From a virus, in IMG/VR virus record IMGVR_UViG_3300023174_004273, positions 1 through 64,000 of that record: a DNA stretch of 64,000 nucleotides; one strand, given 5' to 3'. The translations under genes were made by a program, and so were the position numbers. The notes beneath the pieces are model-generated. The model had not been told where the DNA came from and made no database searches. It saw only the letters and a program-made list of their open reading frames with translations. Of the stretch, positions 40 through 51,724 are shown in pieces; position 1 is the stretch's first letter; the number at the start of each line of letters is the position of its first letter.

Positions 40-960
40 TCAAGCATGTTCTCTCCATAGATCCAGGGTCACACAGTGGAAACCACCGCCCAGGGTGCGA
101 CTGTGGCTTAGTTTGTGTGGTATCACAGTGATTCCGTATTTTTCTATTTCACGTATCAACAGTCGTTGATCTTGATCCATTATCACAGTATTGGGATCAA
201 CCACTAGCATATTTAACGCAATCCATTTCGAAGCGTAAGGGTATTGATAAAACCCTTGTTCGACCACATGATCTACATACAGCACTTCCCACCCATTGAA
301 TGCTTTAGGCAATGTGTCAGGGGTCACACGTGCCGCATTGACTATGACCAACCCTTCTCGCAAGGGTACTATGGTCGAATCTATGTGTACGCCAGCATAA
401 AAGTTACAGAGTTCTATGGTGATATCTGGAAACTGGGCTTGCAACCACTCATAGGCAGCGCGATTGCCTGATGCACTTTCAAGATACAGCCAGGTATCGC
501 CCAGTCTACACACATTGGCCGCATCCAAGGTCATGCCTTCGTTGCGTGGCATGTGTAGATAGCGTTCTGCGGCATCGACCACATCGTAGTAGGCTGCCAG
601 TTCCATGTCTCTGCAGGGATACATCATGGCAGGATCCACTATGGTCGTACCTGCTACCAACAGACGATCTCGAGGACAGTAGTTGTACATACCTCCCAGG
701 GCCACGAAATCCAGCTCCTGAGGACGATGTACTTCAACTCCTAGATCAGTGAGCTTGCGAGCTAGATCGTCTAGCTCAGCTTCGGCTTCATTGACGATCC
801 AGTCGGGCACGGGTCCTGCGGGCACAGGTGTTTCCTTCCACAGGGTCTTTTCGCTTTCTTGTGCGAATACAGGATCTTGGCTGGGCCAGTTGGCATGTCG
901 AGCACTGCCAACTATGATGCTACGCAATGGATCCCACTCGTTATAGGAATGGATCTTCAA
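40..960 (-). CDS. Amidinotransferase (glycine/inosamine-phosphate amidinotransferase family)
   Basis: N-terminal SYNEWDPL, CPRD, HIDS and C-terminal GGGFHC catalytic Cys motif. Confidence 0.88.
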   Translation of the reverse strand: MKIHSYNEWDPLRSIIVGSARHANWPSQDPVFAQESEKTLWKETPVPAGPVPDWIVNEAEAELDDLARKLTDLGVEVHRPQELDFVALGGMYNYCPRDRLLVAGTTIVDPAMMYPCRDMELAAYYDVVDAAERYLHMPRNEGMTLDAANVCRLGDTWLYLESASGNRAAYEWLQAQFPDITIELCNFYAGVHIDSTIVPLREGLVIVNAARVTPDTLPKAFNGWEVLYVDHVVEQGFYQYPYASKWIALNMLVVDPNTVIMDQDQRLLIREIEKYGITVIPHKLSHSRTLGGGFHCVTLDLWREHA

Positions 961-7142: not shown

Positions 7143-8759
7143 TTACTTCTGATATTGTTGATCTACCATCTCATTGTGTAAACGATCACTGGCTCCACTC
7201 AATCTACGTAGCAAAGTGCGATTGTCTACATTGTCTCGGCTGTATTGTCTGGCCATCTGCAAAGCATTTACGTCAATGATCCTGGCATTGCCATAGGCAT
7301 CAAACCCAGGAACAAATCCCATGAGTCCTACTACTAATCCTTGTGTGGCTGTTTGTGCTTCAAAGGTTTTGGCTTCTGCACCTGCTCGGGCTACTTCTTT
7401 GGCACGGGCTTCAACACGATTTTTCATTTCATCTTTGTTGGATGATCCAGACCCAGCTGATTTTACTTCTCCGTCGGTTTTCTTGGCTTCTTGTGATTGC
7501 GGACTCTGAGTTTGACCGGGGCCTGGCCCTTGTTGAGCTTGATTTTGGCTCTGTGGCTGTTGTGCATTGTTACCAGGTTGTGCATTGTTACCAGGGCCCG
7601 ATGTTTGGTTCACAGGACTCACGGAAGAAGTCACTGATGTCACACCAGTTGAGCTGGTAGTGCTAGGTGTTGATATAGCTGAATCAACCGTGCTGTTACC
7701 AGTGCGACTTACTTCGGTGCTCACGGTACCATCTGATTTTACAGATGTGGTTGGTGATGAGGTACTAGTAGTTGAGGTCGTGGTAGTTGTGGTGGTGCCT
7801 ATGTTGAGAATATTTTTTTTGGCATAGGCTTCAGCATAGTTAGGACAGGTGGTGCTATAAAGTCCATTTGCCAGACATTGTTGATTAAAGTAGGCTTCTT
7901 GATAACCAGGACAATCTGTAGCATACAATGGATTGGCTGTGCATTGTTGGGTCTTGTAGGCTTGTGCGTACCCAGGACAAGCTGGATTGTACAAAGGATT
8001 GGCCGTGCATTGTTGTGTAAAATAGGCCTGTGCGTAACCGGGGCATGAAGGATTGTAAAGAGCGGATATGGTACATTGTTGATTGAAGTAAGCGGTGGCA
8101 TATCCGGGGCAGTTGGGCGAGCTCAAAGGATTTACTGAACATTGATCCACGGTATAGTTCAACGACAGGCTGGGATCACGCACTCGAGGACCATACAGAC
8201 CCATCCAGAATCGATCATCCCGACCAGAGATGGCCATGCTGAGATAACCAGCAGATGCTAGAGAGTAAGGATTCGTAAAGGTTTTGGTGCCCTGTTCTGT
8301 GTTCCACACCGCCTCGGCCTGCTTGGCATGACTCATGCTCTGGCTTTCCAGCGTGTTGCCGGCAGGATCGCTCAAAAGAATAGCAACTCCCAGACTGCCA
8401 CTGCTGTAGCCACCATTCATCCACTGATACTTCCAGTTGAATCCGTTGATCTGTATACCAGTGCCTTGCAGAGCTTGATTGATGGCTATGGTCTGTGCCA
8501 CCGTGCTGGGCAAGTAGCCAAATCGTATGGTGTTGGTGTCGGAGTTGTAGTAGGCCGAACCCGTGGTATAACCCGCACCTTCCACAGAGGCAATGCCGTT
8601 GATATTGAGCACCTGGTTGCTGGGTATGCCCCAGGCTGTACCCGCAGGGTTGATCAGGTTGGGTGTGGTCTGAGTCTGCGCATACACTGGCAAGCTGGCC
8701 CACAAATACAGTAGGCACAGGTATAAGAACACCAGGAAGCGCAGATAGTAAGGCATCAC
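7143..8759 (-). CDS. Secreted protein with Cys-rich 22-aa repeats and S/T/Q-rich linker
   Basis: Signal-peptide-like N-terminus, beta-rich domain, five QQC-x9-CPGY repeats, low-complexity linker. Confidence 0.7.
   Translation of the reverse strand: MMPYYLRFLVFLYLCLLYLWASLPVYAQTQTTPNLINPAGTAWGIPSNQVLNINGIASVEGAGYTTGSAYYNSDTNTIRFGYLPSTVAQTIAINQALQGTGIQINGFNWKYQWMNGGYSSGSLGVAILLSDPAGNTLESQSMSHAKQAEAVWNTEQGTKTFTNPYSLASAGYLSMAISGRDDRFWMGLYGPRVRDPSLSLNYTVDQCSVNPLSSPNCPGYATAYFNQQCTISALYNPSCPGYAQAYFTQQCTANPLYNPACPGYAQAYKTQQCTANPLYATDCPGYQEAYFNQQCLANGLYSTTCPNYAEAYAKKNILNIGTTTTTTTSTTSTSSPTTSVKSDGTVSTEVSRTGNSTVDSAISTPSTTSSTGVTSVTSSVSPVNQTSGPGNNAQPGNNAQQPQSQNQAQQGPGPGQTQSPQSQEAKKTDGEVKSAGSGSSNKDEMKNRVEARAKEVARAGAEAKTFEAQTATQGLVVGLMGFVPGFDAYGNARIIDVNALQMARQYSRDNVDNRTLLRRLSGASDRLHNEMVDQQYQK
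7818..8147 (-). repeat. Five tandem 66-bp (22-aa) repeats, consensus QQCxxNPLYxPxCPGYAxAYxx
   Basis: Read directly in the translation. Confidence 0.9.
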
Positions 8760-9265
8760 TTGGCCTCTGCTGGCTGTGCTGGATCTAGTCTAGGTGGGTT
8801 CACTGCATAGTAACCCACATTGCCTTCCTTGGCTTTGTCTAGGACACCACGACGTGCCCATTCTGCCTTGGCATCAGCACCGATCTTGCCTTCTATAGGG
8901 CAGGGAGTTCCTGCGGCAATCATGGCAGTGAATATACGCTCGTCTTGACACAATGTAGCCACTGCGGCCACTTTCATGCCCATGTCATAGAGGTTTTTTG
9001 AAAGTTTGATGCGTTCGCAGTTGGTGTCTATTTTAGTACCTCCCATGGAAATACCAAGGATTTGTGTCTGCACAGCACCCGAGGCTGCCACAGCACACAC
9101 GTCATTGTTGATGGTCGTGATAGCAGGGGCAATGGCCGTGGGCGGTGGTGATTTGACCGTGGTTTCACTTCTAGTTGTTGAATCCGTGACTATGGTCTCG
9201 GCATGGACCGCGGCGAATGATAAGGATAACAATACACCCGCCCAGAATTTTTTATTATAGTTCAT
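8756..9265 (-). CDS. Secreted Cys-containing hypothetical protein
   Basis: Signal peptide ending AVHA; four Cys; AAGGAG RBS; TAAATA motif upstream. Confidence 0.7.
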   Translation of the reverse strand: MNYNKKFWAGVLLSLSFAAVHAETIVTDSTTRSETTVKSPPPTAIAPAITTINNDVCAVAASGAVQTQILGISMGGTKIDTNCERIKLSKNLYDMGMKVAAVATLCQDERIFTAMIAAGTPCPIEGKIGADAKAEWARRGVLDKAKEGNVGYYAVNPPRLDPAQPAEAK

Positions 9266-9334
9266 ACTTGTCTAGCTCCTTAGGCGACAATGTATTTAAA
9301 GGAAAACAGACAAAAAATATGCTGGTAGTTTAAT

Positions 9335-48848: not shown

Positions 48849-50299
48849 TCTAGTTTCTCTTGTGTAAAAGGATAGCGAGCTTCTTTGTAAAACTGCTTAC
48901 GCTTGGTAAGGTGTCGTTTGGCAAACTTACAGGTGCTTGTTATGTCCCAGATTTGGACGAAGTCCTTGTCTTCTGCTTTTCTAATACCTCGCCCGATACT
49001 CTGTATAACGCGGACAAAGCTCTTTCCGGGTTCCACAAGAACCAGATTGAAAATGCGAGGAATGTTAATACCAACAGCGGCCACGCCGTAAGTAGCAACA
49101 ATAATTTTATCGGTAGCTTCAGCCACTTCGTCATACTCATCTTGTCTATCCTTTGCTTTGGTAGCTCCTGACACAAACACAGCACGTTCTCCCAATCGCT
49201 TGACTAACTCCTGGCCAGCAGTGATGCGATCTACTAGCACCAAGGTGTTGCCTGTTTCATTGACTTGCCGTATCAGGCTGGCCATGGTATCCAACCGTCC
49301 TGATTCTTCTAGTAGGTACTTGAGTTCTGATTGATAGTTGTTGTACTCCACGTGATCTACCAGCTGTACTACGTTGACATGGCATTGTGCCAGCACACCT
49401 TTGTCTTGTAACTCGGCGGCAGCCAAGCGACTCACAACAGGGCCAATGCTAACATGTATGGCCTGGAACTCAAAATCTTCTTTGGGTATGGTACCAGTCA
49501 ATCCCCAGCGGATTGGCACTTCCGCCATGACCCCTGTGAGCAGGGTTTTCAACGCATCAGCCTTGGCCATGTGTACTTCATCAACTATGACGCAAACTAC
49601 GCCTTCGAGAAACTCACCTATGGTGATCTCTGCTGATTGATTCTTGGTATTCTTTAACAGTACATTTAGACTTTGCCAGGTACAAATGGTGTGTTGCCGG
49701 CCGAACTCTTTGCGGTCACCAAAGAACACACCCACATCTAGTTCCATGTTGATGTAGTCCTTTTCTGTCTGCGTCACAAGGCTCTTGTTGGGCACTATGA
49801 CGATGCTACGACCATAGGGCGTGACAGCATGGCTCAGTGCGGCTGTCATGATTGTTTTACCTGCACCTGTGGCCACTTCTTGTAGGCACTGCGGGTTGGC
49901 CAGGAAGTTGTTGACGATGTCTACTTGATAGTCACGCAACATGATGGGTTCGCCGGCATTGGGATGTCCTTTGGGCCACAGGATATCTTGGAACGAGTCT
50001 TCCTGTACTTGCTCGAACTCGAATGTGGTAGAGTATTCTCTACGATCGTCTAGCTCAATGTCGTAGTTGTATTCTTCCAAGATAGGAATGATCTCGGGTA
50101 GTAGGTTCACATAAGTGCTACCACCCAGTTGGAAAAAGCTGACTTTGCCATCCCAACGACCTAACCTTACTGCGGGTAGGTATCGGGCATAAGGAACATC
50201 ATACTTGAACTTGTTGACTAGTGCTCGTCTGGCATCTAGTTCTAGCCCTTCGATTTTGACATTGACTTCGTCGCTTATGATAAGTCGTGCAGTTCTCAT
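48836..50299 (-). CDS. uvsW: UvsW-like SF2 DNA helicase
   Basis: LRDYQ, ATGAGKT, DEVH, GLTGT, QSIGRG.R; likely start MRTA. Confidence 0.88.
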   Translation of the reverse strand: MRTARLIISDEVNVKIEGLELDARRALVNKFKYDVPYARYLPAVRLGRWDGKVSFFQLGGSTYVNLLPEIIPILEEYNYDIELDDRREYSTTFEFEQVQEDSFQDILWPKGHPNAGEPIMLRDYQVDIVNNFLANPQCLQEVATGAGKTIMTAALSHAVTPYGRSIVIVPNKSLVTQTEKDYINMELDVGVFFGDRKEFGRQHTICTWQSLNVLLKNTKNQSAEITIGEFLEGVVCVIVDEVHMAKADALKTLLTGVMAEVPIRWGLTGTIPKEDFEFQAIHVSIGPVVSRLAAAELQDKGVLAQCHVNVVQLVDHVEYNNYQSELKYLLEESGRLDTMASLIRQVNETGNTLVLVDRITAGQELVKRLGERAVFVSGATKAKDRQDEYDEVAEATDKIIVATYGVAAVGINIPRIFNLVLVEPGKSFVRVIQSIGRGIRKAEDKDFVQIWDITSTCKFAKRHLTKRKQFYKEARYPFTQEKLEWQK

Positions 50300-50331
50300 T
50301 CTATTATTATACAGCACTTATTTAAGAAGTC

Positions 50332-50363
50332 AAAAAAACAGGCACCTTTTTAGGGTTGCCTGT
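50332..50363 (-). terminator. Intrinsic terminator after AAA ATPase
   Basis: mRNA ACAGGCA.CC..GG.UGCCUGU followed by U-tract. Confidence 0.75.
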
Positions 50364-50369
50364 GTAAAG

Positions 50370-50407
50370 TTGGAACGCCTAGGAGCTAGACTATAATGAC
50401 GTTCCAA
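50370..50407 (-). ncRNA. Candidate anti-RBS hairpin in ATPase 3' UTR
   Basis: 8-bp stem TTGGAACG/CGTTCCAA; loop UCAUUAUAGUCUAGCUCCUAGG complementary to RBS regions at 9270-9286 and 51435-51452. Confidence 0.55.
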
Positions 50408-50415
50408 AGATACTG

Positions 50416-51438
50416 TTAGTGTTTCATAACAGTATTTTCTGCCAGTGCTCGCCAGTTGGCGCTCACTTTGGTAAGATCCGCAATCTTCAGCGCCATACGC
50501 AGGCTCATTTCGCGGAGTTTGTCTTTGTTCTCGTCCATGAATGCCAAGATCTCATCACCTTGCTCGGGCGTAAAATCATAGTCATTGAATAACTGACCTT
50601 GGCGGAAGATCTGTTTGATGCGCAAGAACTTGTCACGCATGGTATCCAAAGTCAAGTCCAGGAAGTGGCAACGACTTTGCAGGGCTTCTAAGTGGTCTTG
50701 CAGTTTCTTTGACTTGAGGTGATCAAACTTCAAGTTGGTAATAAAAATCGCACTGCCTTTGAAGTCGAACTGATCTGGTACACCTTCACGACGGAGCATG
50801 GCACTGTCTGAGTTCCAGCAGATACGACGCTTCTTGCCTGAGTCCAGGGCGGCCTTGAGGATGTTCAACGATACATCATCTTGGAATACGCTGTCACAGT
50901 CGTCAAACACAAGGACATTGTTGGGATCTGAGTGACGATACAGAGTGCAGTACAAACCAATGGCAGTCATTGCACCTTTGACCACTTCATATTTGATCTT
51001 GCGACCTGACAGTTGATCAAACAATCCAGCCTTTTCTAGCTGGAACTCAACACCGTAGCTCTTGCCCACACCAGGAGGGCCAACTACGATCATAGCACGG
51101 ATGTCGCCAGCAATAGCGGCCTTGGTCATGTCATCAAGGATGTTGAAACGCTGTTCAATACGAGCCATGACTTCTTCGTCAGTTTCCACTTTCACGGGTT
51201 TCTTGAACTCTACTACTTTGTCTGCTTTGCCCATGGGCCCTCCATCTACAAACTCAATGTCATTGATACTGTCAACTTTGACGCGGATTTCACTGGGGAA
51301 ACCCGGAAAATAATCACCATTGGCAACGGTAACAAAGTTACCTTTGGCACTGGTTGTGAAATCTTTCACCAACGCAAAAGTGGCGTTGACGATGGGTTGG
51401 TTGCGATATACACCGCGGATGATACGAACTGTGCTCAT
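50416..51438 (-). CDS. AAA+/P-loop ATPase
   Basis: GPPGVGKS, VLVFDDCD, ITN, ALQSRC. Confidence 0.85.
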   Translation of the reverse strand: MSTVRIIRGVYRNQPIVNATFALVKDFTTSAKGNFVTVANGDYFPGFPSEIRVKVDSINDIEFVDGGPMGKADKVVEFKKPVKVETDEEVMARIEQRFNILDDMTKAAIAGDIRAMIVVGPPGVGKSYGVEFQLEKAGLFDQLSGRKIKYEVVKGAMTAIGLYCTLYRHSDPNNVLVFDDCDSVFQDDVSLNILKAALDSGKKRRICWNSDSAMLRREGVPDQFDFKGSAIFITNLKFDHLKSKKLQDHLEALQSRCHFLDLTLDTMRDKFLRIKQIFRQGQLFNDYDFTPEQGDEILAFMDENKDKLREMSLRMALKIADLTKVSANWRALAENTVMKH

Positions 51439-51472
51439 TTAGTCTGCTCCTAAAATGACGTTACAAAACAAT

Positions 51473-51724
51473 ATTGTATGCGGATTCTCTTTTGATGTCA
51501 ATACGGAATCTATGCTATACAAGACCAATAAACAACAACATACATAATCCAAATCATGTGCCGTCCTTGTTTACTTACTATACCATTATTATAGCAAAAT
51601 GGGCATTTCTGGTCAACCCCGTATTTTTCCTGGGTTTTTTGGTGTTGTTTTTATGCAACATCTGGGTTTTGCCCGTTTTGCTAGTGAACAGGGTTAGTAT
51701 AGCATTTATTGGATTTTGTGTCAA
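51473..51724 (-). promoter_or_regulatory. Three tandem sigma70 promoters
   Basis: TTGACA-17-TATACT (51724-51696), TTGACC-17-TATAAT (51616-51588), TTGACA-17-TACAAT (51501-51473). Confidence 0.85.

Follow-up and report, generated by a model that had tools for sequence, protein, structure and literature searches.

A 3' UTR anti-Shine-Dalgarno element co-evolves with the ribosome-binding site of its own ATPase gene in T4-like phages

Regulation of bacterial genes by way of untranslated 3' regions (3' UTRs) is still represented by a short list of cases. Enterobacterial small RNAs of the CpxQ and SdhX type derive from 3' UTRs, share the terminator of the parental transcript and repress other mRNAs at their ribosome-binding sites (RBSs). 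In the hok system, the 3' end of the mRNA (fbi) pairs with the 5' tac element, and not directly with the Shine-Dalgarno sequence (SD); the full-length message is inert and is activated by 3' trimming. A described analogue of the element analysed here is found in the icaR mRNA of Staphylococcus aureus: its 3' UTR contains an anti-SD motif that base-pairs to the SD of that message, blocks the formation of the initiation complex and creates a substrate for RNase III (PMC3868564). In Bacillus subtilis, according to a preprint of 2025, pyrimidine-rich anti-SD-like 8-mers placed hundreds of nucleotides downstream base-pair to the RBS in vivo, hinder initiation and favour decay; these 8-mers were synthetic substitutions, and such sequences are depleted from natural genes, being normally selected against (PMC12697547). 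For the hbs mRNA of the same bacterium, an interaction between the 5' and 3' UTRs that governs the access of ribonucleases is documented (PMC5737220).

The element described in this study lies in a window of 64,000 nucleotides (the whole stretch of DNA analysed, positions 1 to 64,000 of the IMG/VR virus record IMGVR_UViG_3300023174_004273), which belongs to a 75-kb fragment and, judged by its sequence, originates from an uncultured freshwater T4-like phage. T4-type functions, including a UvsW-type helicase, were matched by PHROG and Pfam, and relatives sit in IMG/VR records of up to 525 kb; the DNA runs carry freshwater or lake labels. The gene concerned (50416-51438, minus strand) encodes an AAA/P-loop ATPase of 340 aa (phrog_1250, function unknown), a homologue of T4 NrdC.10; homologues in Vibrio phage nt-1 and Acinetobacter phage Ac42 are annotated NrdC.10 as well.

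The ATPase gene appears to form a monocistronic early unit. Downstream of a terminator (51756-51731) stand three tandem sigma70-type promoter-like sites (51724-51696, 51616-51588 and 51501-51473, minus strand), each matching 11 of the 12 consensus positions with a 17-bp spacer, in agreement with the three sigma70 promoters that the first-pass annotation had assigned to this unit. The proximal site leaves a leader (5' UTR) of about 28 nt, and relatives carry TTGAC(A/C)-N17-TATAAT about 30 nt upstream of the ATPase AUG. From the stop codon TAA (50418-50416, minus strand) to the end of the intrinsic terminator (GC hairpin plus U7, approximately 50363-50332, minus strand), which is conserved in relatives, the transcript would have a tail of about 85 nt. 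In four metatranscriptome runs, low-depth contigs covered only parts of the ATPase ORF and the leader, with none on the tail and none spanning the gene. One contig (run X15, record 2) maps to the minus strand at 51208-51476 and to the plus strand at 51452-51498; this is a fold-back join in the leader/promoter region, most likely an assembly or library artefact.

Several observations concern the neighbourhood of this unit. The next gene, for the UvsW-like helicase, has its own promoter, and the U-run of the ATPase terminator merges directly into the -35 sequence TTGACT of the next promoter. The helicase gene looks leaderless: TATAAT (50311-50306) is followed by 6 nt and the ATG (50299), and there is no SD (window positions 50297-50338, minus strand). 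The same spacing (-10, N6-8, ATG) is found in the relatives L006, L007, L009, L011, L015, L020 and L022. In one of these relatives, L009, a tRNA gene (2830-2900; Rfam tRNA, 49 bits) is located just 5' of the ATPase promoter.

Between the ATPase stop codon and the terminator lies a hairpin (50370-50407, minus strand) with a stem of 8-10 bp, whose arms are TTGGAACG (50407-50400) and CGTTCCAA (50377-50370), and a loop of 22 nt, UCAUUAUAGUCUAGCUCCUAGG (50399-50378). The loop holds GCUCCU, with the anti-SD core GCUCC at 50386-50382. The 8-bp stem, the 22-nt loop and the CUCCU core reported at first pass are all present in the sequence. The 101-nt tail folds at -27.7 kcal/mol (z = -3.65 against shuffles). 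Among 16 relatives with this loop-type architecture, 8 of the 10 stem pairs have changed on both sides and 91% of the cells remain paired; this covariation was matched by none of 500 shuffles, and slid registers came nowhere near it. Twelve columns of the loop are invariant in the same relatives, and conservation reaches at least 90% over a block of 15 nt, AGUCUAGCUCCUAGG. Other clades present the anti-SD as a single strand flanked by two hairpins or place it 2-10 nt past the stop codon, within reach of the terminating ribosome. Whether in a loop, between hairpins or near the stop codon, the element is therefore always unpaired near the 3' end of the message.

No Rfam family fits the tail element. 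The sole Rfam hit, IMES-2 (RF02035), scored 23.1 bits against a gathering threshold of 54.7 and was taken as chance, since the score is weak and the hit did not recur at the ATPase loci of 30 relatives. A promoter-like hit on the plus strand inside the hairpin, which might have been an antisense promoter, was rejected, as it is not conserved in relatives.

The stretch of the hairpin that is complementary to other sites (50393-50374, minus strand) takes in bases of the loop and of the stem. Its target segment in the ATPase 5' UTR (51435-51462, minus strand) contains AACGUC (51462-51457), the SD UAGGAGC (51452-51446), AGACUA (51445-51440) and the AUG (51438-51436). The ATPase's own site, UAGGAGCAGACUAAAUGA (51452-51435), pairs with the loop by 7 + 6 + 5 bp with two bulges, and the site of a late gene starting at 9265, CGCCUAAGGAGCUAGAC (9286-9270), pairs with it by 10 + 6 bp with one bulged A. 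Both pairings, 18 nt with two bulges at the ATPase's own SD and AUG and 16 nt with one bulge at the RBS located 41 kb away, had been proposed at first pass. When the loop was scanned against both strands of the whole 75-kb record (approximately 50,000 windows, the loop's own antisense set aside; 0.1 percentile -19.1), the RBS of gene 9265 emerged as its best partner (-26.4 kcal/mol) and the ATPase's own RBS as the second best (-23.9). The third-best partner (-23.1 kcal/mol), CAGGAGCUGGAUUUCGUG, is found at window positions 696-725 (minus strand), inside ORF 40-960.

Because the loop holds an anti-SD core, only its non-core bases were shuffled (GCUCCU was kept). Against 863 candidate starts, such loops reached the best and the second-best energies in 0.7% and 0.3% of 300 trials, respectively. 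This comparison with translation starts and shuffled controls, which the first-pass annotation had suggested, rejects chance: the complementarity of the loop is more than random. A third helix, between AACGUC (51462-51457) and GGCGUU (50379-50374), requires the stem to open; with the stem opened, leader and tail can form about 19 bp in three helices, at -29.6 kcal/mol. When the 5' UTR was paired with the 3' UTR, this energy was reached by none of 2000 shuffles (mean -11.7, sd 2.7, z = -6.7).

The leader AACGTCATTTTAG (51462-51450) and the 5' arm of the hairpin with the start of the loop, AACGTCATTATAG (50403-50391), both on the minus strand, constitute a direct repeat identical at 12 of 13 positions, which is present in the window and in L003 and partly in L001 and L004. 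The leader can therefore take the place of the 5' arm in pairing with the 3' arm, which offers a strand-exchange route to the 19-bp duplex.

The comparative part of this study covered approximately 590 relatives in a first contig scan, 80 of which (ATPases of 63-96% aa identity) were read at both gene ends, together with loci from larger records and a second set around a distant member. In most clades a GGAGC SD is accompanied by a GCUCC element that follows the unit's last stop codon and precedes the terminator, and the bases that follow GGAGC in the SD and precede GCUCC in the tail switch together (TAGAC, TAA, TA, AA, CAAC). Thus, in this phage and the nearest clades, the SD GGAGC(N)UAGAC faces the tail GUCUAGCUCC, with one bulged base that varies. 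The SD GGAGCUAA is matched by UUAGCUCC in L015, GGAGCUA by UAGCUCC in the large "TA" clade, and GGAGCAA by UUGCUCC in L020, L021 and L062. In clade E, where small ORFs lie in between, the partners are GGAGCCAAC and GUUGGCUCC, and in L021 and L209 CGGAGC is met by GCUCCG.

These correspondences were evaluated in several ways. GCUCC is present in the tails of 21 of the 24 clusters with a GGAGC SD, as compared with 0 of the 7 with other SDs (Fisher 4.6e-5). When each of 21 protein clusters (88% aa identity) was represented by a single member, the energies of the cognate duplexes summed to -351.5 kcal/mol, against a permuted mean of -301 (sd 10.6), and none of 100,000 permutations reached this sum; the test was anchored on the element and used instead of an earlier energy matrix, which had been calculated on whole 3' regions of unequal length and was too noisy. 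With one representative per state, the cognate sum was reached by 3 of 5040 permutations. The permutation and Fisher tests are only partly corrected for shared ancestry, a concern which is answered by the number of concerted switches on the tree: on the maximum-likelihood tree of the ATPase, the shared SD/tail states need at least 7-10 concerted changes, each on both sides. The AA state arises inside the CAAC clade, and AA, TAA and TA all occur within one strongly supported clade. For an RNA-RNA contact over so long a range (1.1 kb), comparative support from so many independent compensatory changes is unusually strong. Of the covariation that the first-pass annotation had named as a check, the part concerning the loop and the ATPase SD was borne out (about 20 clusters), whereas the late-gene site proved to be conserved, without compensatory change.

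The extended SD is private to the ATPase gene. The sequence GGAGCCAAC was present in 4 of the 5 clade-E records searched; in three of them its only copies are one at the ATPase RBS and an inverted one in the tail, 1.15-1.4 kb downstream, and the fourth has two extra forward copies. The length of the potential duplex differs among the clades: about 19 bp, interrupted by two bulges, are possible in this phage and only 8-13 bp in the others. In the "TA" clade the pairing amounts to AGGAGCUA only (8 bp, about -13.5 kcal/mol), which is no better than that of non-cognate partners sharing the core. ATPase homologues of about 35% identity are located inside operons and are devoid of the element, as is that of Citrobacter phage Ci1.

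Some more distant or divergent loci deserve mention. The 3' UTR of clade D (L020, L036) has UUGCUCC right past the stop codon and a second hairpin with the loop GAUUCGCUCCGG, for which no matching RBS was found in the available fragments; a GGAGCGAA tag has been reported on early genes of a related phage. In L238-L271, whose ATPases are about 63% identical to that of the window, a different conserved tail start, CCCCUGCAGUGUGCG, stands directly past the stop codon, and the leaders, ACACACACAGGAG or GACACUG...AAAGGAAAC, are both partly complementary to it, which, judged from the sequences, resembles another form of the 5'-3' contact. The cultured jumbo phage PA5oct of Pseudomonas (L170; MK797984.1, 248735-249889 and flanks) encodes an ATPase homologue of 41% identity, and a hairpin approximately 10 nt past the stop codon has a 3' arm, UGCUACUUU, complementary to the SD region, GGAGUAGCA. 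This duplex (-16.3 kcal/mol) is reached by 1.9% of shuffles (p ~0.02), and PA5oct might serve as an experimental model, although at this stage it is a lead only.

Partition-function folds of the full mRNAs (1.1-1.5 kb) count as supporting evidence only, since equilibrium folding ignores ribosomes and kinetics. In these folds, 11 of 13 diverged representatives show pairing between SD and 3' UTR with P >= 0.8; the probability of 5'-3' pairing is low in the other two (L011 and L161). Complementing the loop in silico reduces the probability of the contact between the SD and the 3' UTR to 0.00. Five representatives were compared with and without the tail; on its removal four of them leave the SD 40-65% unpaired, and in the fifth, L080, the SD pairs elsewhere in the ORF. 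For a hairpin loop to pair with a distant site, a pseudoknot must form or the stem must open.

The second complementary site belongs to a late gene (8756-9265, minus strand), the first of a late operon, which encodes a protein of 169 aa (phrog_20531, function unknown) with an N-terminal signal-peptide-like segment. Its upstream region (9268-9298, minus strand) consists of a T4-type late-promoter-like TAAATA (9298-9293) and a 5' UTR in which the site (9286-9270) begins 6 nt past TAAATA and ends 4 nt upstream of the AUG at 9265. A block of 16 nt in this 5' UTR, GCCUAAGGAGCUAGAC, is invariant in four lineages and is flanked by bases that differ, and the edges of the block coincide with those of the stretch complementary to the loop. 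The proteins themselves are 55-73% identical in the three lineages compared in full, and the fourth is represented by a tblastn match of 70% over part of the protein. In one relative, covered by three overlapping records (G001-G003, one of them of 315 kb and 91% complete), the late gene and the ATPase gene share a record, and loop and site are both present and complementary; in the 315-kb record, the late RBS and, in inverted form, the loop are the only places with the 10-mer GGAGCTAGAC.

The co-occurrence of loop and late-gene site was seen in only two lineages, that of the window and that of G001-3. Five fragments bearing the ATPase contain no homologue of the late gene, and the fragments bearing the third and fourth late-gene lineages contain no ATPase. 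In a clade-C genome (G004) the loop is present, and the late gene has an unrelated leader and an RBS that does not match. As none of the lineages compared has changed in both the loop and the late site, and as clade C is unmatched, the late gene is probably a trans target in the TAGAC clade only.

Taken together, we consider it likely that the anti-RBS element in the tail represses the ATPase mRNA to which it belongs and that, in this clade, it probably acts also on the late gene. Given how often loop and ribosome site have changed in concert among relatives, the tail very probably brakes translation through RNA pairing. According to this model, the ATPase would be made from a short monocistronic early mRNA (promoter or promoters, 28-nt leader, ORF, tail of about 85 nt, terminator), the tail hairpin of which would expose the loop as an extended anti-SD sequence. 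Once the tail has been transcribed, the loop could pair with the SD-to-AUG region of the same molecule or of a sister copy, and in this phage the pairing might grow to about 19 bp through invasion of the stem, which would hide the RBS. Translation of the ATPase would take place mainly on nascent transcripts and be shut off afterwards, and the leader-tail duplex might possibly be cleaved by a nuclease. In the TAGAC clade, which includes this phage, the same loop matches the entire 5' UTR of late gene 9265, so that the tail or a fragment of it probably damps or delays this gene in trans. The first-pass annotation had offered either an anti-RBS RNA or a 5'-3' fold-back of the message; both pairings have comparative support, whereas the repression and a processed small RNA are what we infer from them. 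The idea that the pairing shields GGAG from a RegB-type nuclease was rejected, no RegB (PF10715) being found in four near-complete relatives.

A more tentative extension, possible but short of probable, regards the tail as a two-target timer, which would shut off the strongly transcribed ATPase after a co-transcriptional burst and hold back the operon of the late secreted protein until late transcripts outnumber the tail. If this is true, early and late expression are coupled via a single loop of 15 nt, a form of RNA-based temporal control that is undescribed for T4-like phages.

The main role of the element could instead be exerted in trans, by a stable small RNA of about 80 nt (hairpin and terminator) processed from the ATPase mRNA, which would repress late gene 9265, possibly along with other genes; its complementarity to the own RBS would then be secondary. 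The architecture is that of a small RNA, with the seed in a hairpin loop followed by a terminator with a U-tail, and the best partner of the loop in the genome is indeed the late-gene site, which has stayed invariant while the proteins of its four lineages diverged. In addition, 15 nt of the loop have stayed fixed in the TAGAC clade, whereas the ATPase leader accepts a bulged A, C, G or none; this suggests a second constraint on the loop, and one imposed by the late gene would explain it. However, the pairing with the own SD is conserved and co-varies in all clades, and only one clade has the late-gene match. The anti-SD of many clades is found 2-10 nt past the stop codon and lacks a 5' hairpin, so that a small RNA would require excision from the end of the ORF, and the second loop of clade D is without a target in the available fragments. 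We regard a primary role in trans as rather doubtful; it overlaps with the repression of the ATPase mRNA by its own tail, and both can hold. It is also conceivable that the pairing shields the mRNA ends from ribonucleases and stabilises the message, as in B. subtilis hbs, with no translational repression, and the short leader, which brings the pairing close to the 5' end, counts for this view. Yet in every clade the pairing is centred on GGAGC and reaches the AUG, where it must compete with the 30S subunit, and in B. subtilis a systematic test of downstream anti-SD sequences found both lower expression and lower stability (PMC12697547). Protection of the ends without repression is, in our opinion, improbable.

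Inverted copies of a motif of 8-13 bp flank the ATPase gene in all clades, and they might be thought to act at the DNA level, as sites for a DNA-binding protein or for an invertase flipping the gene. The upstream copy, however, is the SD and always lies 5-9 nt from the AUG; the two copies differ by single-base bulges and some of the predicted pairs are G-U, which are tolerated by RNA only; and the downstream copy resides in the loop of a hairpin with a co-varying stem, which indicates a constraint at the RNA level. Moreover, known recombinase sites are far longer than these copies, and we consider a DNA-level function very improbable. As the loop contains an anti-SD core, RBSs are its favoured partners a priori, and any loop with CUCC might find SD-like partners by chance. 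This explanation is rejected by the core-preserving shuffles, the cognate permutations, the concerted changes on the tree and the association between the presence of element and SD, and its probability is negligible.

Repression of the ATPase mRNA by its own tail, if it occurs as proposed, would mean that translation is where large freshwater T4-like phages restrict the NrdC.10-type ATPase, an abundant early protein, and that they may link early and late expression via RNA. The pairs of extended SD and loop are short, orthogonal and naturally diversified, and they could be used as parts for translational control.

With regard to the known systems, the likeness to hok is topological only, consisting in 3'-to-5' pairing and predicted translational silencing. 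The label "hok-like" given at first pass is imprecise, since this locus has no toxin ORF (the product is a 340-aa ATPase), no mok-type leader frame, no Sok-type antisense RNA and no pairing of the extreme 3' end. With the CpxQ and SdhX type of small RNA the element shares a seed located upstream of the intrinsic terminator, with its U-tail, of the parental mRNA; in contrast to the pairing observed here, those RNAs seldom target the SD of the parental mRNA itself. The B. subtilis 8-mers differ in another respect: they represent sequences that are selected against, whereas the anti-SD of the phage tail is positively conserved and co-evolves with its SD.

The closest resemblance is to icaR, as both units are monocistronic and both have a 3' UTR motif complementary to the SD of the same gene, which at this locus co-varies with it in relatives. 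The ATPase gene is bracketed by consensus promoters and terminators, and with these predicted ends both partners may lie on one transcript. There is no sequence homology between the phage unit and icaR. They differ further in that the gene is an early phage gene here and that of a bacterial repressor there; the tail is of about 85 nt as opposed to 390 nt; the motif is an extended GCUCC, displayed in a co-varying hairpin loop or between hairpins by the stop codon, as opposed to UCCCCUG; and, in one clade, a probable second target, also conserved, lies in another transcription unit. The first-pass annotation had not recognised the element as a described system. In the literature searched, regulation through a 3' UTR was described for no phage mRNA, but the system is not without precedent, because the 5'-3' UTR interaction of icaR has been described (PMC3868564). 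What is known, therefore, is regulation by an anti-SD sequence of the 3' UTR, and what appears to be new is its probable occurrence in a phage, the display of the element in a loop, its co-evolution with the SD and, possibly, the presence of two targets.
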